A DNA stretch of 64,000 nt from Calditrichia bacterium (GTDB lineage Bacteria > Calditrichota > Calditrichia > RBG-13-44-9 > J075), in the NCBI GenBank assembly GCA_965227145.1, contig OZ245730.1, forward strand, positions 2,467,374 to 2,531,373. Direction: 5' to 3'. Below are positions 183-35,946 of the stretch, one piece after another. The notes beneath the pieces are model-generated. The model was not told the origin of the DNA. It was given only the letters and a program-made list of their open reading frames with translations, and ran no database searches. A program made the position numbers and the translations under genes. Numbering within the stretch: position 1 is the stretch's first letter; each line of letters opens with the position of its first letter.

Positions 183-1061
183 TTAAAAATGGCGAGTGAT
201 GCCAAATCCCAATCGCAAATGATCGATTTCGGCTGATTTATCCGAGCCCACAATAAATTGCGAGGGATTGATCCGGCTGTTATTCGTGACAAACAAATGA
301 AAAACGTGCCCGCCGGTTTCGATATCGAGCCCGGTTGCAAAATGATTGTGCGATTTCGTGCCCAGTTCATCTGCCCGGACAAATCCCTGATATCCCGAAA
401 TAATGGGATTAAGCTCCAGCCAAAAGCTCCACATTTGGTTCAGATAAAATTGGTAATAATTCCCGAGCGTAAACGTGTACTGATTCTCAACCGTGAAAAT
501 ATTGCTATTGTATAAATACGATGGCACAATGCCGATCCCGAATTTGTTATTAAACACCATCGTGTTGTAAACCAGTTGGGCATAATATTGGAAATTTTCG
601 CTGGCGAGGCTGCCGCGATTTAGCGATTCCGGCACTTCCGTATTTACCGCAACGCCACAGCGAATCGCAATCACAGCGGGGAGCGTTTCGCTGCGAATCT
701 GGAATAATTTTAGCTTTAGCTGTAAATCCATATTGTCCAACAAATTGCTGTGACCGAGCGAAACCATCATTTTGTCAGTGATACCATAGCTGATCGCCGT
801 GCGAATTTGCGCCGGACCGTCGATGCCCCAAAATGCACGAAAGCCTTCCGTTATCGCAGGCAAAAACCGGTGGGATATTTCATACATAAAATCGCCTTTT
901 CCCAACGATTCGGTTGTCGGGAAATTTGCGGTCATCGTTGAATGGAATAGTGCCAGATCCACTGTTTTTGGCGGTTCGCTGCGCTGCCATTTCGGCTGCG
1001 CGATACATTCTATTGAAAGCAAAAAGATGCTGACGCAGATTAACATCGTTATTTTTCGCAA
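183..1061 (-). CDS. DUF5777-family outer-membrane beta-barrel protein
   Basis: Signal peptide; N-P-T...ISHRF...G.DG motif; amphipathic strands; ends LGFGITRHF with terminal Phe. Clear paralog of the barrel part of 2357..3616. Confidence 0.8.
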   Translation of the reverse strand: MRKITMLICVSIFLLSIECIAQPKWQRSEPPKTVDLALFHSTMTANFPTTESLGKGDFMYEISHRFLPAITEGFRAFWGIDGPAQIRTAISYGITDKMMVSLGHSNLLDNMDLQLKLKLFQIRSETLPAVIAIRCGVAVNTEVPESLNRGSLASENFQYYAQLVYNTMVFNNKFGIGIVPSYLYNSNIFTVENQYTFTLGNYYQFYLNQMWSFWLELNPIISGYQGFVRADELGTKSHNHFATGLDIETGGHVFHLFVTNNSRINPSQFIVGSDKSAEIDHLRLGFGITRHF

Positions 1062-1106
1062 TTGATTTTCCTCCGGTTTAAGCTCACAAGTGTCGCGGTA
1101 AATTGT

Positions 1107-1685
1107 TTATTTACTTTCTGTCAGATAAAAATCGAGATGCAATTTTATCGCATTGCTCACTTTCACAAACGCGGCCAGCGACGGCGCTTCGATGTTGAAA
1201 TCGGAGAGCAACACCACGAAATCGCAAACGATGCGCATACGCCCGTCAGCTTCGATGGTAACCATTCCCGGTATTTCCATTTCGCGGGATACGCCGTGGA
1301 TGAACATGTTGCCGGTCGTCCAAATATGAAAAGCGGTCACCGTGGAATCAATTTTTTCAACAGACGAAACTGTGCCATCGAATGAGGTAAACTGCCATTG
1401 CTGGGTTTCCAGAACATCGCGCATATCGCGGTCGCGTTTGCTCATTCCGGTTTCGAGCGTGTTCAAATCTACCTCAAAATAGAGCTTGCTGTTTGTTTGA
1501 AACATCGAATCGCCTTCCCAATACAGGTAGCCGTCGATGTTTTCGGTAACGCCGTCAAAGGTCAGCACAACTACTTCGGATGTAAATTTAACCTGATTGT
1601 CTGCTGATTTATCCACATGCCATTCTGTAGAAAAAATGGTCTGCGGTTGGAGCGCGATGAGAATAATGAGTAATGCCAGTCGCAT
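1107..1685 (-). CDS. YceI-family polyisoprenoid-binding periplasmic protein
   Basis: Signal peptide; W.VD...V.F, F.VDL.TL.TG...RD..M, G...IHGV.RE, V.L.DFNI..P motifs typical of YceI. Confidence 0.85.
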   Translation of the reverse strand: MRLALLIILIALQPQTIFSTEWHVDKSADNQVKFTSEVVVLTFDGVTENIDGYLYWEGDSMFQTNSKLYFEVDLNTLETGMSKRDRDMRDVLETQQWQFTSFDGTVSSVEKIDSTVTAFHIWTTGNMFIHGVSREMEIPGMVTIEADGRMRIVCDFVVLLSDFNIEAPSLAAFVKVSNAIKLHLDFYLTESK

Positions 1686-1712
1686 TTATTTTCCTTTTTT
1701 AGGTAGGAGCAA

Positions 1713-2144
1713 TTAATCCGGAAGTGCGCCATTTTCAATCCACACCCGGATGGAATCGATAACAGGTTGGGAAATTGGCGGCAAACCGAGCGGCATCCGG
1801 GTACCGAGAATGTTTTCGCCGGATATTTTTAGCAGCAGATAACTGCCCGCCGGATTGCTGGGTTCTATTCTGTCCAATCCCGGGTTTTGCGAATTGGGAA
1901 TATTGACAATTTGAGAATATGCATCGCCGACAGTCAGTTGCGGTCGAACGGCGCCGCCGTGGCAGTTTCCCGATGCACACAGCGGTGTAAACACCGAATC
2001 CTGAATTGAGGAAAATTTCGCCTGTATCGACTGAACACCGCTGCCATTATCAAATACCGTATCAGCGCTTTCTGTGATGTGTTCGGAACAACCTGTCATC
2101 GTAAGAAATATTGCAGTAAACACCCGGAAAATTATTTGTTTCAT
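1713..2144 (-). CDS. Lipoprotein with monoheme c-type cytochrome domain (CX4CH; planctomycete-cytochrome-C-like)
   Basis: Lipobox MTGC; heme motif CASGNCH; RIEP..P..SYL..KI.G; RMP candidate distal Met; WIENGA ending. Confidence 0.75.
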   Translation of the reverse strand: MKQIIFRVFTAIFLTMTGCSEHITESADTVFDNGSGVQSIQAKFSSIQDSVFTPLCASGNCHGGAVRPQLTVGDAYSQIVNIPNSQNPGLDRIEPSNPAGSYLLLKISGENILGTRMPLGLPPISQPVIDSIRVWIENGALPD

Positions 2145-2356
2145 TAACCATTCTCCATTATCATTCCTTTATCGCGAGCAGAAAACCAAAATAAATAGGA
2201 CAGACAACATACACAAATCAATCTGAAAATACGGTCACAATAAATGCTAAAATAAATGGAATGGTTTTTGCTAATTGACAGTTGTTTAATTGCTAATTTT
2301 TTACCGCACCAATTAATCGCCGCTGCATTTTTTAACACACAACTGGAGGAGATCCT

Positions 2357-3616
2357 ATGCTTTTAAGTCTTCGATTAAAAAGATGCCGACGTTCATCATG
2401 GCATTTTGTTTTGAGCAGTTTGATGGCTTTTATGTTTATCGGCGAGCTTGCCGCAGAAACCGGTTTTGCGAATCAAACCGCAGAGCAACAGCAAACCGGT
2501 GATCTGGAAAATCAGGTGATCAATATTTTTGCAGAAAACTGCGCGTTAGCGGGTTGTCATGCCGGCACACCGCCGATGATGAACTTAAAACTAACCGAAG
2601 ATGAATTTTTGCAGCGCACCGTAAATCAGCCCAGTATCGAAAACCCAAAGATGCTTCGGATCAAACCGGGCGAGCCGGACAGCAGTTATCTCGTCCAAAA
2701 AATAATGGGTGCTGAAGGCATTATCGGTCAAAAAATGCCCTTTGGCCGTGATCCATTGAGCAGTGCCCAAATCGCAACGATTATTGAATGGATAAAGCAG
2801 ATGAAAGCGGCAGATGTCGCCAATCTGGAAGCGCCCAGCCCCGATCCGGTGCTGCCATTCAACGCCTGGAAAGTCGTGAATATCCCAACCGCGCGGATGG
2901 TTGATCGCGGAAATTATCTGTTTTTGATCAGCCACCGCTTCTTCCCGAAGTTGGACACCGGATACGATACCTTTTTCGGACTCGATGGCTCGGGCATCAT
3001 TTTCCTGAATTTGGGATACGCATTTACGAATAACCTGTTTGTCAATTTGGGGCGCAGCAATGCCGCAGATAACGTTCAACTGGATGTAAAATATGGCTTA
3101 AAACAGCAATATCCCGGTGATAAATTTCCGGTTGCCGCGGCAATTCAAACGTCAGTTAACTGGCAAAGTGAGAAAAGACCTGGGTTGGATCGCATGCGAT
3201 CGGAAGCTTTCAAATACAGTTTTCAGGCGATTTTATCCAGCCAACTGCATGAAAATGTTGGACTTACCGTATCACCCGGAATATTGCTCAATCAGGATAG
3301 CGAAACCGATGGCGAAGATGCGCTGATTACCATCGGCGTCGGTGGACGGGCGCATGTCTGGAAATCCATTTCCCTGATTGGCGAATGGGTACCGATCATC
3401 AGCGGATACACGCCAACCGCAACTTTTGGCGAAATCAACCGGTTTGACACATGGGGCGGCGGTATCGAATTATCGGTCGGTGCGCACGCTTTCCAGATTA
3501 TTGTCACCAATTCTGCCGGTCTCACCACGGATCAATACATGCGTGGTGGCGGACTGGATCTCAGCGACGGCGATTTCCGGCTGGGTTTCAACATTTTTAG
3601 ACCGCTACAATTCTAA
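2357..3616 (+). CDS. Fusion of an N-terminal CX4CH cytochrome c domain and a C-terminal DUF5777 beta-barrel
   Basis: CALAGCH...RIKPGEPDSSYLVQKIMG...KMPFG...WI domain, then a Pro-rich linker, then NIPT..ISHRFF..GLDG barrel ending in Phe. RBS GGGAGAG upstream. Confidence 0.8.
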   Translation: MLLSLRLKRCRRSSWHFVLSSLMAFMFIGELAAETGFANQTAEQQQTGDLENQVINIFAENCALAGCHAGTPPMMNLKLTEDEFLQRTVNQPSIENPKMLRIKPGEPDSSYLVQKIMGAEGIIGQKMPFGRDPLSSAQIATIIEWIKQMKAADVANLEAPSPDPVLPFNAWKVVNIPTARMVDRGNYLFLISHRFFPKLDTGYDTFFGLDGSGIIFLNLGYAFTNNLFVNLGRSNAADNVQLDVKYGLKQQYPGDKFPVAAAIQTSVNWQSEKRPGLDRMRSEAFKYSFQAILSSQLHENVGLTVSPGILLNQDSETDGEDALITIGVGGRAHVWKSISLIGEWVPIISGYTPTATFGEINRFDTWGGGIELSVGAHAFQIIVTNSAGLTTDQYMRGGGLDLSDGDFRLGFNIFRPLQF

Positions 3617-3628
3617 AGGAGAACATTT

Positions 3629-4093
3629 ATGCGACGTTTGAAATTATATGCACGTTTTTTGAAGCTGCTTGGCTTTTGTTTCATGTTACATCTTGTGTTG
3701 AGCGGTTGTGAGCACCTGGCGCTCACGGAGCCGCAACCCATTCCGCCGGGCTCTAACGAAGTGGATACGTTGGCAACGTTTAGCGCGATTCAACGCAATA
3801 TTCTAGATACGAAATGCGCGTTGTCCGGCTGTCATGTTGGCGGTTCCTCCCAGTTGCCGGGTGTGCTGGATTTAAGTGATGGCGTAGCCTATCAAAATTT
3901 GGTGAATGTGCCCAGCATCGAAAAACCGGAATTAAACCGGATAGAACCCGGTCAACCGGACAGCAGCTATCTTTTCCTCAAAATTGTCGGCACCAATATT
4001 GTCGGTCAGCGAATGCCTTTCGGGCGTGATCCGTTGACCCAAAGGGAAATTGACGCTGTCCGGAAATGGATCAGCGGCGCTGCAAATAACTAA
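3629..4093 (+). CDS. Lipoprotein with monoheme c-type cytochrome domain (CX4CH)
   Basis: Lipobox LSGC; CALSGCH; RIEPGQPDSSYLFLKIVG; RMPFG; RBS AAGGAG. Confidence 0.78.
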   Translation: MRRLKLYARFLKLLGFCFMLHLVLSGCEHLALTEPQPIPPGSNEVDTLATFSAIQRNILDTKCALSGCHVGGSSQLPGVLDLSDGVAYQNLVNVPSIEKPELNRIEPGQPDSSYLFLKIVGTNIVGQRMPFGRDPLTQREIDAVRKWISGAANN

Positions 4094-4167
4094 TTGTATT
4101 TAAATGATTTACGAACATTATTATAATTCGCAAATCTATCAATAAACCCAAATCGAGGATAATATTT

Positions 4168-4662
4168 ATGAATAGATTTTCAATAATTAAAATAGTTGCA
4201 ATCGGGTGGTTTGCAATTGTGTTCGCTGTGGGGCAAACTGGCTTTGGGCAAGATGCAGAAAAGGAAAAGGTTGATCTGGAAATTGTCATCAAACCTGTTG
4301 GCGATCAAATGTTATACGAAACCACAGAATTTACGGTAACTGCCGGCAGCAAAATCCGGATTATTATGGAAAATACGGCAACTTCGGAAGCAATGCTGCA
4401 CAATGTGGTTATCCTGAAACCGGAAACAGACAAAGCTAAAATCGGGATTGCAGCCATTCAGGCTGGTGCGGACAAAGGATATATCCCCGATGATCCGGCG
4501 GTATTGTTTTACACAGAAATCACAAAACCCGGCGAGAAAAATGAGGTTGTTTTTACCGCGCCAGAACCGGGCGATTATCCATATATTTGCAGCTTTCCGG
4601 GGCATTATTTGATGATGCAAGGTGTGATGCATTCTGTTGCCAAAAAGGATGCGGCGAAATAA
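4168..4662 (+). CDS. Periplasmic blue (type-1) copper protein, azurin/auracyanin/plastocyanin family
   Basis: Signal peptide; HN motif (MLHNVVIL); C-x4-H-x4-M ligand loop (YICSFPGHYLMMQG); RBS GAGGA. Confidence 0.88.
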   Translation: MNRFSIIKIVAIGWFAIVFAVGQTGFGQDAEKEKVDLEIVIKPVGDQMLYETTEFTVTAGSKIRIIMENTATSEAMLHNVVILKPETDKAKIGIAAIQAGADKGYIPDDPAVLFYTEITKPGEKNEVVFTAPEPGDYPYICSFPGHYLMMQGVMHSVAKKDAAK

Positions 4663-4837: not shown

Positions 4838-5320
4838 TTATTTTACATCGATCAAATGTCTCAGATTTTCAAACGTTTTTGCACCGATTCCTTTAACCGA
4901 TTTCAATTCCTCAATGTTCGAAAAATTACCGTTTTCTTTGCGATATGCAATGATTCGTGCAGCAATTGTTGGCCCGATTCGCGGCAATGTTTCCAGTTCC
5001 GCGAGAGTTGCAGTATTGATATTAATTATGCCAATCGTTTTTTTGCTTCGGGATGTTTTGTTTGATTTTGGTCGCGGTTGCGGAAGCAATGGCTGCGCAT
5101 GTGATGTGTTTGTGGAATCGGCAAAAAATGAGTTGTCCGTCGCACTTTTTGATTGTGATAATTGTTGCTGCTGCTTTCGGAATTCAGTTTCAAATTCGCT
5201 AAAATCGTACGGCTCTGTGGGATAAATCAGGCTCGCGAGATTCTCACCACCCATAAACAGAATGGCGATAGCTGCAATATACAGCATCGCCGAAAGTTGG
5301 CCTTTTGAAAATTTCATCAA
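4838..5320 (-). CDS. comEA: ComEA-family helix-hairpin-helix DNA-binding protein
   Basis: N-terminal TM segment; ININTAT..ELETLPRIG and ELKSVKGIG HhH repeats. Confidence 0.85.
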   Translation of the reverse strand: MMKFSKGQLSAMLYIAAIAILFMGGENLASLIYPTEPYDFSEFETEFRKQQQQLSQSKSATDNSFFADSTNTSHAQPLLPQPRPKSNKTSRSKKTIGIININTATLAELETLPRIGPTIAARIIAYRKENGNFSNIEELKSVKGIGAKTFENLRHLIDVK

Positions 5321-5398
5321 TTTACTGCGTTTTTTGAGGGAAAATCAGGTGCATGTTGTGCACATTAGTGCAGATTTTTCACTGCGAAAAACCTGCGT

Positions 5399-6580
5399 TT
5401 ATTCAAAATTCAATACTTCTTTCAATCGCTGGAAAAACCCTTTTTCCTTTTTGGGCGCCTGAATATTTTCTGATTTGAGCAAATCCGCCAATAATTCTTT
5501 ATCTCTGGCGCTCAATTTTGTGGGAATCCAGACCTTAATCTGAACCAGAAAATCGCCTTTGCTGTGGCTGCGCAACTCGGGAATACCTTTTCCGCGCAAC
5601 CGGAAAACCTTGCCAACCTGCGTTCCCGCCGGAATGGTTATTTCCACTTTTTTGTAGCGATCCGGGTTTTCGTGTGGCAGTTCTTTATCAGCAACTTCTA
5701 AAGTGGGAATTTCCACGGAACCGCCCATCGCCAGTTCCGGAAAGCTGGCGTAATAATCAAATACGACGCTGTTTTCGTGCCGGACAAACAGCGGGTGATC
5801 TTTTTCCTGAATCACGACAATCAAATCTCCGTTGGGTCCGCTGTTGGGTCCCGCATTTCCTTTGCCCTGCACCGAGAGATAATTTCCGCTCATCACACCG
5901 GCAGGAATGTTGACCTCGACAGTTTCTTCACCGCGAATGCGACCTTCGCCCCGGCAGGTTTCGCAGGGATTGGTGATAATTGTTCCTTTGCCACGGCATT
6001 GCGAACAGGCGCTTACGTTCACAAATCGTCCAAAAATTGATTGGGAAACCTGACGCACTTCGCCGGCGCCCTGGCAGGTCGGGCAGGTTGTCGCTTTTGA
6101 GCCGGGACGACTGCCTTCGCCGTTACAGGTGTTGCATTGAACCTGTTTATTAATTTTCAATCGTTTTTTTACACCGGCGGCAATTTCTTCCAAATCGAGT
6201 TCGAGGCTAATTTGTAAATCACGTCCGCGTTCCCGGCGATCGCCACGGCGCTGTCCGCCGCCAAAAATATCGCCAAATCCGAACCCGAAACCTTCTTCCA
6301 TAAATGTCCGTAATGCGTCGGATAAATCAAAGTTCGGGTCGTATCCCTGAGCACCTTTTACGCCATCGTGTCCGAATCTGTCGTATCGTTGCCGCTTTTC
6401 CGAATGGCTCAGCACCTCGTATGCTTCGCCAACTTCTTTAAATTTTTCTTCTGCTTCCGGATTATCCTGATTACGATCCGGGTGATATTTCATCGCTAAT
6501 TTTCGATATGCGCTTTTGACTTCCTCCGGAGAGGCATCTCGCGAAACACCCAAAATTTCGTAATAATCACGTTTCGACAT
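5399..6580 (-). CDS. dnaJ: Molecular chaperone DnaJ
   Basis: J-domain ([12 protein letters not shown]), G/F region, four CxxCxGxG repeats, C-terminal domain. Start placed at MSKRDYY (ATG at 6580). Confidence 0.97.
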
Positions 6581-6591
6581 CCCAAACCCCA

Positions 6592-7620
6592 CTAATTTTT
6601 GCCATAAATTTCTGAAATTTTGCGTGCTGTAAATTCAACAATCGAGAGAAATTTACTGTAATTCATTCGTTTTGGTCCAATAATTCCGACAACGCCGCTC
6701 ACGTCGCCAATTTGATAGCGAGCGGTAATAATGCTGCATGCAGCCATTTTTTGTTCATCAATTTCTTCGCCGATTTTGATGCTGGTGGGTTGCTCGTTAT
6801 CCGCTTCTGCCAAAATTTTCACCAAATCACGGCGTGTTTCCAGCATTTCCATCACCGATGTCAGTGTGCTGACATCCTGAAAATCCGGTGATTGCAAAAT
6901 ATTTTGCGTGCCTTTAAAATACAAATCGATATCTTCGCTGAAATTGAACAATCTGTCCACACGTTGCGAAAACATTCGCACCAAACCAGTGTCTTCATGT
7001 TGAATATCTTTCACCACAGCTGAAAATGTGCGTTTGATTTCGGAGATTTTCATCCCCTGCAAACGTTCGTTCAATATCTGGCTGACCAGATTTAATTTGT
7101 CCGGCGAAACCAGTTGCGAAATTTCCAGCGTAATTGTTCGCACAAATCCGGATTTTACGGTGATGACAACCAGTAATTTTTCGGATGACAATGGGATTAA
7201 CTCCATCCGTTCAAAAATGCCCTGCTCAATCCGGGGCGACATCATGATCCCTATTTGTTTGGACAAATGCGCTAAAATCCGGGTCACTTCGTTTAATACA
7301 TCTTCCAAATCGTAATTTTCGAGCGGATTGATGGTCACGGATATCTGCTCCTTTTCATCGATCGAGAGGCGGCTTTTTTTCATCAGCATATCCACATATG
7401 CCCGGTATGCGGGTGTTTGCGGCACTCTCCCGGAAGAAGTGTGCGGTTGATAAATAAATCCGCGCGATTCCAGCATTGCCATAATATTGCGGATCGACGC
7501 CGGGCTGATGTTCAGACGGCTGGTTTGCGCAATTAATGACGAGCTAACCGGCATGGCTGTATCGATAAAATTTTTAACCAATTCGCCCAAAACAAGTTTT
7601 TCTTTTGTAGAAAGAACCAT
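6592..7620 (-). CDS. hrcA: Heat-inducible transcription repressor HrcA
   Basis: [29 protein letters not shown] winged helix; [11 protein letters not shown]-terminal motif. Start placed at MVLSTKEK (7620); the ORF-track extension to 7785 looks non-coding. Confidence 0.93.
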
Positions 7621-7801
7621 TTCCGACAAACTACCTTTCGAAAAAAACTGATTTTTTATGTTAACCGGCGGTGACTGAGGCGTAAAAAATTGCCGAACAT
7701 TCAACCACCGCAGATGAAAAATAATATTACCCAAATTATATAATCGACACAAGTTTAGGGTATTAAAGATCACCATTGTAAGCAATTAATTTTCAATTGC
7801 C

Positions 7802-33429: not shown

Positions 33430-35946
33430 ATGCGTATATCAAATATAATTATCACCTTAGCGGCGATATTTTCTTTACAGGCAACTGCCCAGGTTACCGG
33501 TTTGTCCGGTTGGGATATTTACCTCGATCCGGGGCATAGCCGTACGGAAAACATGGGTATTTACAATTATTCGGAAGCCGAAAAAAACCTGCGCGTTTCG
33601 TTGCACACACTGGAATTGCTGCTGACAACTACCGATATCGACACGGTTTGGAGCAGTCGCTACGACGACAATGTTCAGGTTTCGCTCAGCCAGCGAACAG
33701 ACGAAGCCAACAGTTTGGGTGCGGCGTGGTATCATTCCATCCACAGCAACGCCGGTTCAGCGACGGCAAATAACACCTTGCTGTTGTGGGGGCAATATCA
33801 AAATGGGCTGGAAAAAGTGCCCAACGGCGGCAAAGACATGAGCCGGGACATGATTCCGTTGCTCACCGCTGCAATGCGTATTCCCACCATTGGCGATTAC
33901 GGCGATTGCAGCTTCTACGGCTGCACGTTTACCGGACCTTATTTGCATGTCAATCGCACCACTTTTATGCCGTCCGAGCTCAGTGAATCCGGATTTCACA
34001 CCAGTCCAACCCAAAATACCCGAAATATGAACGCCGAATGGAAACGGATGGAAGCGTATGCTTTCTACTGGTCGATTTTGAAATATCACGGGCTTGATCG
34101 CCCGACCGTCGGCATTTCTGCGGGGTATATTAATGATATCGAACGGGGGATTCCGCTAAACGGCGCGACTGTTGAACTTGCCGGTCAAACTTACACAACG
34201 GACACTTATCAATCGCTGTTTTACAAATACACCAGCGATCCCGATTTGCTGCACAACGGTTTCTACTTTTTCGAAAATGTAACGCCTGGACCGCACCAAA
34301 TGATCGTTTCTGCGGAAGGTTTTGAGCCGGATACACTTACTGTCACGGTTTCGGATACGTTTATTACGTTTACAGATGTGAACCTGATCGACGCCCGCCC
34401 GCCGCTGATTTTAGAAACCATTCCCGCACAAAACGCCACGGAAATCAGCGTTTTTGACAATATTTCCATTAAATTTAGTCGCCGAATGAGCGCCGGTTCT
34501 GTTCAAAACGCACTCTCTTTTGAGCCGCCGCTAACCTACACAACGCAGTGGCAAAACAGCAATCGCAAGTTGGTTCTCAATCCGTCGGACATGCTGCAGG
34601 GCGTGCAATACACAATGACTATCGACTCGACCGCCCGCGATATTTTCAATCACGAATTGGATGGCAACGGCGATGGCATCGGCGGCGATGCGTTTACCCT
34701 CACATTCACCACCGAGGAAGAAGATTTGCTGCCGCCGCAGGTGAACGGTGCGTTTCCGCCCCAAAACGCGGTTAATGTCATTTTGCAGCCCATTATCAAT
34801 CTCGAATTTGATGAAATTATCGATCCTGCGACCATTCAATCCACCAGCGTCGGGCTGAAAAACAGCGTTACCGGCGATCCGGTTCCGGGTTCGTTGCTCG
34901 AATTTCAGGTCAGCGATCGCACCGTTTTCAGCTTTTTCCCGAACGATGCGCTGGAACCGTTAACCCAATATTCCGCAACCGTTCAGCCCGGATTGAAAGA
35001 TTTGTTCGGCAACGAAATCGATACGGAACAACAGTTTAGCTTTACTACTGGAAACGTTGGATATCAGGTAATTACGATCGATCCGTTCCAAAATGACATT
35101 TTGACCAACTGGTGGGACCCGCAGCAAAGCGGCACCACAACCGGTATTTTGACCAACGAAACATCGCGCGGAAACAACAGCATTTATTACAATTTGCTCA
35201 GTGGCAGCAACCGTTCCATGCGGCTGTCGTATGGCTGGGATGTCAGCGCTGGCAACTGGCTGATTCGCGAATATCTCGGCGGTGGAACGCCCCGCGGTAT
35301 ACTTTTTGACGATACCTACATTTTGCAGGTTTACATTTTTGGCGACGGTAGCGACACCAAATTCCGCTTTGCGATAGACGATAACGCCCCGAACGGCAGC
35401 GCAACTGATCACGAAGTGACCGAATGGATGCCCATCGACTGGATCGGCTGGCGGCTCGTTTCGTGGGATTTGGCCAATGACCCGATCGGGACATGGCTTG
35501 GCAACGGCGTGCTGAACGGCGATCTGCGCTTCGACAGCTTCCAGATTTCGTATGACAACACAACCGGCAGCGCGGTTACCGGCGCGATATATTTTGACGA
35601 CCTGCGATTGGTGAAACCGGTTGTCGTGGGCATCGACGATGGGGGAGTGGCGCAAAACATCCCGACCGAACACGAATTGCTGCAAAATTATCCGAACCCG
35701 TTCAACCCGACGACCGAAATCCGGTATGCGGTTGCCAACAGCAACAGTCCGGTAAAACTAACGATTTATGACATGCTTGGTCGCGAAGTGCGAACGCTGG
35801 TCAACACCAGTCAAACACCCGGAAACTACACTGCGACCTGGGACGGTCGCTCGCAAAACGGAAACCAGGTTGCCAGCGGCACGTATTTATACACGCTCAG
35901 CATCGGCGATTTTCGGCAAACGCGGAAAATGTTGCTGCTAAAATAA
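33430..35946 (+). CDS. Secreted N-acetylmuramoyl-L-alanine amidase (Amidase_3) with Ig-like, carbohydrate-binding-like and T9SS/FlgD-type C-terminal domains
   Basis: LDPGH, E..N, SIHSNA and ELSESGF Zn-amidase motifs; two Big_5-like repeats; IYFDDLRL jelly-roll domain; LQNYPNPFNPTT...KMLLLK CTD. Confidence 0.88.
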   Translation: MRISNIIITLAAIFSLQATAQVTGLSGWDIYLDPGHSRTENMGIYNYSEAEKNLRVSLHTLELLLTTTDIDTVWSSRYDDNVQVSLSQRTDEANSLGAAWYHSIHSNAGSATANNTLLLWGQYQNGLEKVPNGGKDMSRDMIPLLTAAMRIPTIGDYGDCSFYGCTFTGPYLHVNRTTFMPSELSESGFHTSPTQNTRNMNAEWKRMEAYAFYWSILKYHGLDRPTVGISAGYINDIERGIPLNGATVELAGQTYTTDTYQSLFYKYTSDPDLLHNGFYFFENVTPGPHQMIVSAEGFEPDTLTVTVSDTFITFTDVNLIDARPPLILETIPAQNATEISVFDNISIKFSRRMSAGSVQNALSFEPPLTYTTQWQNSNRKLVLNPSDMLQGVQYTMTIDSTARDIFNHELDGNGDGIGGDAFTLTFTTEEEDLLPPQVNGAFPPQNAVNVILQPIINLEFDEIIDPATIQSTSVGLKNSVTGDPVPGSLLEFQVSDRTVFSFFPNDALEPLTQYSATVQPGLKDLFGNEIDTEQQFSFTTGNVGYQVITIDPFQNDILTNWWDPQQSGTTTGILTNETSRGNNSIYYNLLSGSNRSMRLSYGWDVSAGNWLIREYLGGGTPRGILFDDTYILQVYIFGDGSDTKFRFAIDDNAPNGSATDHEVTEWMPIDWIGWRLVSWDLANDPIGTWLGNGVLNGDLRFDSFQISYDNTTGSAVTGAIYFDDLRLVKPVVVGIDDGGVAQNIPTEHELLQNYPNPFNPTTEIRYAVANSNSPVKLTIYDMLGREVRTLVNTSQTPGNYTATWDGRSQNGNQVASGTYLYTLSIGDFRQTRKMLLLK

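Follow-up and report, generated by a model that had tools for sequence, protein, structure and literature searches.

A candidate redox module of DUF5777 beta-barrels and CX4CH cytochrome c domains at the outer membrane of a Calditrichia bacterium

To our knowledge, only a few systems are known that carry out redox chemistry at the outer membrane of Gram-negative bacteria or across it, namely, multihaem conduits of the Mtr/Pio type and the Cyc2 proteins, and almost all of them come from Proteobacteria. Cyc2 is recognised by a CXXCH motif, a PXFAR[QK][TY] motif and a 16-strand porin (PMC8406198). Proteins of the YceI family, too, have been described in the company of cytochromes: BcnA of Burkholderia cenocepacia, a YceI protein with ubiquinone-8 as the likely ligand, works with the cytochrome b561 LcoA in lipid-peroxyl detoxification (PMC9113575), and Cbp2D of Cellvibrio japonicus carries a YceI-like X158 domain together with c-type cytochrome domains (PMC8981238). 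Here we analyse a stretch of 64,000 nucleotides from a Calditrichia bacterium (assembly GCA_965227145.1, contig OZ245730.1, positions 2,467,374 to 2,531,373 of the forward strand; hereafter, the window means this whole stretch), which contains six genes for beta-barrels of the family DUF5777 (PF19089), predicted cytochromes with a CX4CH motif, a YceI protein and a blue-copper protein. We argue that this locus represents a third, unrelated architecture, combining a 12-strand barrel family with a cytochrome c domain family that has no Pfam model, in a tight operon that is conserved in Calditrichota, Ignavibacteriota, Latescibacterota, Gemmatimonadota, KSB1 and Bacteroidota.

The six open reading frames, denoted A to F, form two divergent units, with A, B and C on the minus strand and D, E and F on the plus strand:

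183-1061, minus strand: A, stand-alone DUF5777 outer-membrane beta-barrel, 292 amino acids (PF19089, E 8e-53)
1107-1685, minus strand: B, YceI-family lipocalin, 192 amino acids (PF04264, E 1.3e-14)
1713-2144, minus strand: C, predicted lipoprotein monohaem cytochrome c, 143 amino acids (lipobox MTGC, CASGNCH, RMP)
1959-1979, minus strand: CASGNCH motif of C; its axial-Met candidate, RMP, is at 1794-1796, minus strand
2145-2356, no strand: divergent intergenic region between the two modules, 212 bp, 34% G+C
2357-3616, plus strand: D, predicted cytochrome-barrel fusion, 419 amino acids (signal peptide, CALAGCH domain, DUF5777 E 4e-49)
2480-2821, plus strand: predicted cytochrome c domain of D, residues about 42-155 (CALAGCH at 2540-2560; Met127-Pro128)
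2858-3613, plus strand: barrel of D, residues 168-419 (DUF5777, 12-strand, C-terminal Phe, after a Pro-rich linker)
3629-4093, plus strand: E, second predicted lipoprotein monohaem cytochrome c, 154 amino acids (lipobox LSGC, CALSGCH, RMP)
3815-3835, plus strand: CALSGCH motif of E; its RMP Met is at 4013-4015, plus strand
4168-4662, plus strand: F, azurin/auracyanin-like type-1 copper protein, 164 amino acids (signal peptide, PF00127, E 3.5e-13)

The initial annotation of this DNA had listed six genes of exported type from these families, and the list of open reading frames and the Pfam scan bear it out; the export signals (signal peptides in A, B, D and F, lipoboxes in C and E) were judged by eye from the N-termini, where B shows a cleavable signal peptide and no lipobox. 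The start codon of A is TTG, with an ATG five codons in. In the minus-strand unit, hereafter module 1, the cytochrome gene C comes first, the YceI gene B lies in the middle and the barrel gene A is last. The barrels of A and D share 30% identity (pairwise E 2e-33), and the three CX4CH domains of C, D and E are mutually 40-49% identical (C and E 40%, E and the haem domain of D 49%); judging by their sequences, the two barrels and the three haem domains are true paralogues. The spacer between the units had been read as a divergent promoter of about 210 bp. The AT-rich spacer is indeed there, but a scan of it for sigma-70 promoters and terminators gave no excess over shuffled controls, and in the alignment with its closest counterpart, locus L089, the sole shared element is a ribosome-binding site, GGAGGAGATCC, conserved ahead of D; the spacer is therefore only an intergenic region here.

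The gene neighbourhoods of the two barrel subfamilies, unfused as in A and fused as in D, were surveyed separately, their combined alignment (A3) being very divergent; all surveyed loci come from metagenome-assembled genomes (MAGs) or metagenomes. The unfused survey covered 80 genome loci, in MAGs labelled Calditrichota, Ignavibacteriota, Latescibacterota, Gemmatimonadota, KSB1 and Bacteroidota, as well as in single MAGs labelled Planctomycetota and Deltaproteobacteria. Among the 73 loci with intact upstream DNA, the order cytochrome-YceI-barrel is found in 68, from at least five phyla, a CX4CH cytochrome is linked to DUF5777 in 69, and YceI lies directly upstream of the barrel in 72. The exceptions are a locus with the cytochrome downstream, a locus (L062) with cytochrome and YceI upstream in which a gene sorted by the type IX secretion system (T9SS) is inserted between YceI and the barrel, and three loci without a recognisable cytochrome, two of which have a motif-less lipoprotein there. 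The other neighbours of the unfused module are variable. The fused form is seen in Calditrichia, Rhodothermales, Salinibacter and many unbinned contigs, and a small CX4CH lipoprotein follows the fusion directly in 44 of 51 fused loci. In a tree of the haem domains all fused domains make up one clade (support 98/98); therefore, as far as the tree of these sequences tells, the fusion of haem domain and barrel arose once and is old. Cytochrome C falls in this tree among the cytochromes from loci with YceI. The association of the genes within each module goes far beyond chance, and a fortuitous juxtaposition of unrelated exported genes around a generic porin, to which one might be led by the poor conservation of the mirror arrangement and of F beyond close relatives, has a negligible probability: it is refuted by the synteny survey for each module taken singly, given the order kept in these loci across phyla and the existence of a physical gene fusion.

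The mirror arrangement itself is another matter. The initial annotation had treated the whole cluster as one unit, and this view has to be abandoned, because the relatives carry the two modules apart: they are adjacent only in the window and in L089, which is 76% identical to the window and keeps the mirror layout, with E followed by a ComEA-like gene, dnaJ and hrcA and with no cupredoxin, whereas in L090 and L091 the fused pair occupies the same dnaJ/hrcA position without module 1. In the window, positions 4838-7785 on the minus strand hold a gene for a ComEA-like helix-hairpin-helix (HHH) protein, dnaJ and hrcA, and the same order past the fused pair recurs in L089-L093, which implies a fixed chromosomal position of the fused module in this Calditrichia lineage. 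Thus, comparison of the loci identifies the mirror cluster as two independent modules that happen to abut, with F apparently inserted between E and the HHH gene.

The partners of the two modules differ in a complementary way. YceI is near-obligate in the unfused form and present in only one of 39 fused loci, L089, which owes it to its adjacent module 1; cupredoxins adjoin 15 of the 39 fused loci and none of the 73 unfused ones. The YceI protein of the window, B, is a divergent member of its family (PF04264, 55.2 bits at a cutoff of 23.7), and a phmmer search matched no chain of the Protein Data Bank (PDB) to it at E<=0.01. Solved YceI proteins bind a polyisoprenoid or quinone ligand (PMC9113575). 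A study of iron limitation in Riemerella mentions a YceI-like gene, the locus of which could not be tied to this module. The copper protein F scores 50.2 bits against PF00127 (cutoff 21.2), and its best solved relatives are the type-1 copper protein 6kol and auracyanin A (E about 1e-18); the ligand set HN...CSFPGH...M, with His78, Cys141-X4-His146-X3-Met150, is present and is kept in the alignment with 6kol. The score of F against the azurin equivalog TIGR02695, 61.9, is below the cutoff of 105.1, so that F is azurin-like rather than an azurin orthologue. Two unrelated kinds of cupredoxin occur at fused loci, in different positions: the F-type (azurin/auracyanin-like) lies downstream of the fused pair in the window, L093, L149 and L160, and the Cupredoxin_1 type is found upstream in 13 loci and also in L004, and in L088 it is downstream. 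Since two types are found at these loci in the metagenome survey, a one-off insertion of a cupredoxin can be rejected; on the other hand, the F-type gene is missing from the closest relatives with flanks (L089, L090 and L091), against the earlier view of the cupredoxin as an integral part of the cluster. From its distribution, F looks like an accessory that has been recruited repeatedly and not like a core part of the module. Because their distributions are complementary, the data suggest that YceI and the cupredoxin may fill the same role, that of a mobile carrier between a station at the outer membrane and the other parts of the envelope.

What, then, is the CX4CH domain? No Pfam family covers it. 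The CX4CH motif was found in 116 of 120 fusion homologues examined, and in an alignment of 53 homologues C62, C67, H68, M127 and P128 (D numbering) are invariant. The Met-Pro pair (M127 of D, M117 of C, M129 of E) is aligned with the axial methionines of the RMP motifs of FoxE, an Fe(II) oxidase of solved structure. Specifically, a profile of 37 small lipoproteins, of which C is one (alignment A2), matches both haem domains of FoxE (PDB 5mab; E 2.7e-8), with the Cys-His and the R-M-P Met in register; the second match is the C-terminal haem domain of hydrazine synthase alpha (5c2v, E 0.011), with cytochromes c6, c551 and c552 as weak matches behind it. The nearest Pfam family, PSCyt1 (PF07635), gives no match to C, D or E at E<=0.1 and touches 12 of the 37 A2 members when these are scanned singly (best E 3.6e-5, below or near threshold); the general cytochrome c models Cytochrom_C and CBB3 touch six of the 37. 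A scan of the window proteins against NCBIfam yielded only sub-threshold similarities to azurin and to an 'SO2930 dihaem' family, and searches of PDB sequences with D and with E returned nothing useful. The AlphaFold model of E is helical (predicted local distance difference test, pLDDT, 82), and its only Foldseek matches, to hydrazine synthase alpha and FoxE, are poor (E 0.16 or worse), a weakness that probably stems from a collapse of the haem pocket when the protein is modelled without haem. By homology and motif, on which the label of cytochrome for C, D and E rests, the CX4CH domain appears to be a c-type cytochrome domain of an undescribed family related to FoxE, hydrazine synthase alpha and PSCyt1, and it is very probably a haem binder. 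Together with the survey, the homology of this domain to FoxE gives good support to the suggestion of the initial annotation that DUF5777 marks a redox module in a new barrel family; the enrichment of its neighbourhoods in redox proteins is strong. In FoxE, the RMP methionine of each domain ligates the haem of the other domain (PMC10654088). Because the methionines of FoxE swap between domains and because D and E are constantly paired, the N-terminal domain of D and E may pair as a FoxE-like two-haem unit.

The domain family is large and varied. An exhaustive profile search yielded 27,761 cluster representatives at E<=1e-3 and 11,606 at E<=1e-10. Several relatives have a canonical CXXCH in the alignment column of CX4CH, and P0276 combines one CXXCH with three CX4CH repeats within a single protein; at L085:4958-5365, on the metagenome chromosome OW818654, a cytochrome with a canonical CXXCH (CIGCH) occupies the usual first position of the unfused module. 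Tandem arrays of 2-8 domain copies are common in P0275-P0422, in proteins of up to about 3,500 residues (P0298, with 1830 amino acids, has eight copies), and, judging by the sequence, these arrays would be chains of monohaem domains. All seven copies in P0284 (3575 amino acids) are devoid of CXnCH, and in Latescibacterota/Gemmatimonadota (L080:4750-5268, L083:4822-5340) a motif-less lipoprotein of 172 amino acids stands in the usual place of the cytochrome.

The lipoprotein cytochromes also share a feature close to their lipobox. In E, residues 26-28 (window 3704-3712) read G-C-E, and Cys-Glu-His is kept after the lipobox in the partner cytochromes of fused modules; the cytochromes of the unfused trio keep Cys-Ser/Ala-Asp/Glu. 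Acidic residues just past the lipidated Cys are the surface-export signal of Bacteroidota lipoproteins. Because of this resemblance, some of the lipoprotein cytochromes may be surface-exposed.

The assignment of the barrels to DUF5777 is unambiguous, with scores against PF19089 of 179.6 bits for A and 167.5 bits for D (cutoff 23.1) and coverage of model positions 1-247 and 1-245, respectively, of 247. A search with A found 394 homologues, and a C-terminal Phe is present in 79 of 120 among the matches listed. The AlphaFold model of D (pLDDT 89; predicted template modelling score, pTM, 0.82) shows 12 strands between residues 187 and 417, with short periplasmic turns and a C-terminal Phe. The best Foldseek matches of this barrel are NanC, FapF and the COG4313 channel (PDB 2wjq, 5o67 and 4rl8) at 10-14% identity, and the probability is 1.00 for NanC, FapF, OmpG and others; the sequence profile of the barrel found no solved relative among PDB sequences, and neither DUF5777 nor PF19089 came up in any paper in a full-text literature search. 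The two barrel subfamilies, at about 28% identity, share 23 columns that do not vary. Gly is frequent in these columns, and there are several Arg, Asp, Glu, Asn and Gln besides two His, which lie at opposite ends of the barrel; His193, Arg194, Glu343 and His377 (D numbering) are among the invariant residues. By a crude assignment, the conserved R194, E241, K245, Q264, N268, K286, Q290, R331, E343, E371, Q380, R408 and N412 and nine Gly face the lumen, and the long loops L1, L5 and L6 are unusually conserved. Such a pattern of lumen and loops is more in keeping with a dedicated site of binding or reaction than with a general porin.

The number of strands would fit a type Va autotransporter with the cytochrome as its surface passenger, and EstA and AaaA are among the fold matches of D. 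This arrangement was judged unlikely, since the linker is Pro-rich and extended, with no long helix, and since the conserved segment ahead of the barrel is also present in barrel A, which has no passenger.

The size of the barrel also bears on the suggestion of the initial annotation that the locus encodes an outer-membrane electron conduit in the sense of Mtr or Pio. The barrel is of the size of NanC and FapF and there is one haem motif per chain, which makes a continuous chain of haems impossible; to judge from the model, a cytochrome domain, at about 105 residues, does not fit inside so narrow a barrel. The outer membrane cannot be bridged by a barrel of 12 strands with one haem. Hence, the barrel is not a wire, and the substrate must come to it. 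This substrate could be a small ion passing through the lumen, by the logic of Cyc2 and FoxE, or, equally, a lipid-soluble molecule at the barrel.

By far the most economical reading of the locus is a function in electron transfer, in view of the homology, the ancient gene linkage, the physical fusion, the size of the barrel and the repeated recruitment of one-electron carriers; cupredoxins, a dihaem cytochrome c and extra CX4CH cytochromes have been recruited independently at fused loci. More specifically, we favour, tentatively and as a proposal with not quite an even chance of being right, an outer-membrane-docked one-electron relay with exchangeable carriers and a lipid-soluble substrate or cofactor, serving the housekeeping of the envelope. 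In such a relay, the DUF5777 barrel would keep a His/Met-ligated monohaem cytochrome at the periplasmic face of the outer membrane: in the fused module, the haem domain is covalently joined to the N-terminus of the barrel in D, and in module 1, cytochrome C would be held by a lipid anchor with a tether of about 33 residues. The station would be connected with the remainder of the envelope by a second one-electron carrier, diffusible or tethered. For the unfused module this would be the YceI lipocalin, presumably loaded with quinone as in its characterised relatives; in the fused module it would be the lipoprotein cytochrome E, plus the blue-copper protein in many lineages including this one. 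The lipid-soluble substrate or cofactor might be a quinone, an outer-membrane lipid or a lipid radical, so that redox chemistry would be done at the outer membrane as an envelope housekeeping function. Of all this, the data directly show which genes are present, their homology and synteny, that the fusion arose a single time and how large the barrel is; that haem is bound, how the proteins are placed, which way the electrons flow and what they act on are our inferences.

Three considerations incline us towards a lipid-soluble substrate. First, YceI is near-obligate in the unfused form, and its characterised relatives bind isoprenoid quinones and work with cytochromes. Second, the contexts of the modules are those of housekeeping in heterotrophs of many phyla. 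Third, one clade of fused loci (L004, L005 and L113-L140) is embedded in a long co-directional operon that runs through a UbiA prenyltransferase, a GT4 glycosyltransferase, a cupredoxin, the fusion, the small cytochrome and a soluble dihaem cytochrome c (CGDCH, CRNCH) and continues with methyltransferases, another CX4CH cytochrome, B12-binding radical-SAM enzymes and a GT87 glycosyltransferase; a carbamoyltransferase is also present. From its gene content, this operon resembles a pathway for an isoprenoid lipid or a glycolipid, with genes for periplasmic redox proteins interspersed. Its spans in three loci are:

L131:1126-11621
L004:2974-9992
L005:181-9452

Several points weigh against this proposal. 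The fused module works without YceI, so that a quinone carrier is not essential to the core chemistry; the similarity to FoxE suits a metal-ion substrate equally well; and the link to UbiA and radical-SAM enzymes is confined to a single clade and may be no more than synteny. As a motif for haem attachment, CX4CH is rare, and C, E and the N-terminal 150 residues of D match no Pfam model. The lumen-facing residues of the barrel, as well as the position of the haem domain relative to it, were derived from DSSP and alternation patterns only. Finally, the evidence for transcription of the fusion gene by a close relative is weak and minimal: in a single wastewater metatranscriptome (run X23), contigs 93-95% identical to the window fall on positions 2696-2911 and 3188-3394 of this gene, at a low depth similar to that of dnaJ.

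Among the rival explanations, the one that survives best, unlikely as it is, is a minimal oxidase of Fe(II) or another small reductant akin to Cyc2 or FoxE. The ion would enter the 12-strand channel and be oxidised by the haem at its periplasmic mouth, and the electrons would leave via the second cytochrome and the azurin-like protein to a terminal oxidase. Haems with His/Met ligation are typically of high potential, which would be convenient for such an oxidase, as would the conserved charged residues that are predicted to line the lumen; the blue-copper partners recur, as does rusticyanin with Cyc2, and the organism occurs in sludge, soil and sediment, the same DNA having been found in bioreactor, soil and sludge metagenomes; the best named homologues assign it to Calditrichota. 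FoxE is the closest solved relative of the haem domain, but this similarity is shared with PSCyt1 and hydrazine synthase and, accordingly, reflects the fold family rather than the function. Likewise, the single-chain layout of cytochrome and barrel follows the logic of Cyc2 (PMC8406198), but the PXFAR motif and CXXCH are absent from all 120 fusion homologues examined and the barrel has 12 strands rather than 16, so that identity with Cyc2 is rejected on both sequence and structure. Furthermore, the module belongs to heterotrophic lineages (Rhodothermales, Salinibacter, Latescibacterota, Gemmatimonadota), the surveyed modules adjoin housekeeping genes and never oxidases, and the near-obligate YceI of the unfused form has no role in the scheme. 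The rest of the window encodes ordinary functions of a heterotroph (transporters, glycosidases, TonB receptors, a T9SS substrate, dnaJ/hrcA); among the neighbours in the window there are no respiratory, metal-oxide, metal-redox or electrode-related genes.

Somewhat less probable is a true route across the outer membrane, in which electrons would pass from periplasmic cytochromes through the barrel, by way of a bound cofactor, a quinone or a threaded tether, to the cell surface, where surface lipoprotein cytochromes or T9SS-anchored redox proteins would receive them, with minerals or surface enzymes as recipients. An argument for possible surface partners comes from Ignavibacteriota, where T9SS-sorted proteins flank the cytochrome-YceI-barrel trio at 10 distinct loci (11 matches; L006 is the same as L020). 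In these proteins, a Temptin_C domain (PF24784) at the N-terminus, in which a CXXCH is invariant, precedes repeats of DUF2141 or Lipoprotein_15, and, by sequence, such a protein, of which the window has none, is a possible haem partner at the cell surface. Their genes include:

L006:3177-4814
L015:584-2293
L017:3197-4837
L021:2279-3916
L023:2659-4299
L024:2874-4322
L078:4747-6168
L081:7110-8534

In Calditrichia and KSB1, other T9SS proteins are found inside the operon. The organism of the window has a type IX secretion system itself, as implied by the T9SS C-terminal sorting domain of an amidase/Big_5 protein of 838 amino acids (window 33430-35946, plus strand), which bears on any hypothesis of surface partners. 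A route across the membrane would also agree with the acidic residues past the lipidated Cys of the cytochromes (C-E-H, C-S-E), which resemble the Bacteroidota surface-export signal, and with a lumen rich in conserved Gly and the two invariant His, and Cbp2D sets a precedent for YceI-like and cytochrome c domains in the service of extracellular copper enzymes (PMC8981238). Against it stand the single haem per chain, the narrowness of the barrel for a cytochrome domain of this size and the absence of any T9SS partner adjoining the modules in the window.

A bolder idea, which we regard as a long shot, is that the barrel itself holds a cofactor or a quinone delivered by YceI and that the locus is a minimal trans-outer-membrane redox system across the Fibrobacteres-Chlorobi-Bacteroidetes (FCB) superphylum. 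The grounds for it are the conserved, Gly-rich polar lumen, the two invariant His at opposite ends and the conserved long loops. If this were true, electrons would cross the outer membrane without a multihaem wire, and the system would be an outer-membrane counterpart of the pair of YceI and cytochrome b561, feeding redox proteins on the surface, either T9SS-sorted or lipoproteins.

A function outside electron transfer is more doubtful still. Here, the barrel would take up a hydrophobic compound or a tetrapyrrole, or act on it as an outer-membrane enzyme, and the CX4CH proteins would be sensors or chaperones based on haem or a metal, or else would bind no haem. Copies of the domain without a haem motif do exist (P0284, L080, L083), 12-strand barrels of related fold act as channels or enzymes (NanC, the COG4313 channel, which takes hydrophobic compounds, and OMPLA), and YceI proteins bind lipids. 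However, hundreds of members strictly keep the Cys, Cys, His and Met-Pro, the haem-bearing domains of FoxE are homologues of the domain, and the repeated, independent recruitment of cupredoxins and c-type cytochromes is hard to explain otherwise.

Returning to the envelope relay that we favour, the window is especially informative since it places the fused form and the unfused YceI form side by side, with a blue-copper accessory; the fused form implies that cytochrome and barrel act together. The complementary pattern of YceI and cupredoxin leads to a testable hypothesis, that YceI proteins may act as periplasmic redox carriers, for a very common family the physiological role of which is still unsettled. 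If the function is the protection of the envelope or the supply of electrons to surface enzymes, it would bear on the ways in which abundant heterotrophs of sediment, soil and sludge withstand oxidants or drive chemistry outside the cell.

How does this architecture compare with the systems described so far? Closest in layout is Cyc2 of Acidithiobacillus and Mariprofundus, in which, as in D, one exported polypeptide joins a monohaem c-type cytochrome at its N-terminus to an outer-membrane beta-barrel, and which has a small periplasmic cytochrome encoded downstream and, in Acidithiobacillus, also a cupredoxin. Yet the cytochrome segment of Cyc2 is very short and carries CXXCH, in contrast to the CX4CH and the FoxE/PSCyt1-like haem domain of about 105 residues in D; the two are unrelated by sequence, with a 16-strand porin in one and a 12-strand DUF5777 barrel in the other. 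The MtrCAB, PioAB and MtoAB systems likewise have an outer-membrane barrel encoded beside c-type cytochromes, some of them lipoproteins, but theirs are 26-strand barrels that sheathe decahaem wires, as opposed to a barrel of 12 strands and a single haem motif in each of C, D and E.

The best profile match, FoxE of Rhodobacter ferrooxidans SW2 (PDB 5mab), has the Cys-His and the R-M-P aligned in both of its domains; it is, however, a soluble protein of the periplasm that carries two haems, has CXXCH and is encoded alongside FoxY and FoxZ, whereas the window proteins have one predicted haem and CX4CH, are lipid-anchored or fused to a barrel, and have no foxYZ beside them. Similarly, PSCyt1, the 'Planctomycete cytochrome C', is the nearest Pfam family but has CXXCH and sits on large PSD1/PSCyt2 proteins.

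On the side of YceI, the pairs BcnA-LcoA and E. coli yceI-yceJ display the same conserved pairing of a YceI protein with a membrane-associated cytochrome, sometimes as a fusion, with a proposed role in the quinone-mediated redox protection of envelope lipids (PMC9113575). Their partner is a dihaem b561 of the inner membrane, as against a c-type lipoprotein and an outer-membrane barrel here, and the locus has no cytochrome b561 gene. Cbp2D and Cbp2E (X158, X183/X132) are secreted multidomain proteins with carbohydrate-binding modules and cytochromes of other families and have no outer-membrane barrel. As to the barrel, none of its relatives by fold, NanC, FapF and the COG4313 channel, is linked to cytochromes, unlike DUF5777. 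Taken together, these comparisons indicate that the general idea of a barrel and a cytochrome at the outer membrane is a known one, and that the parts from which it is built here are unrelated to those of the known examples.

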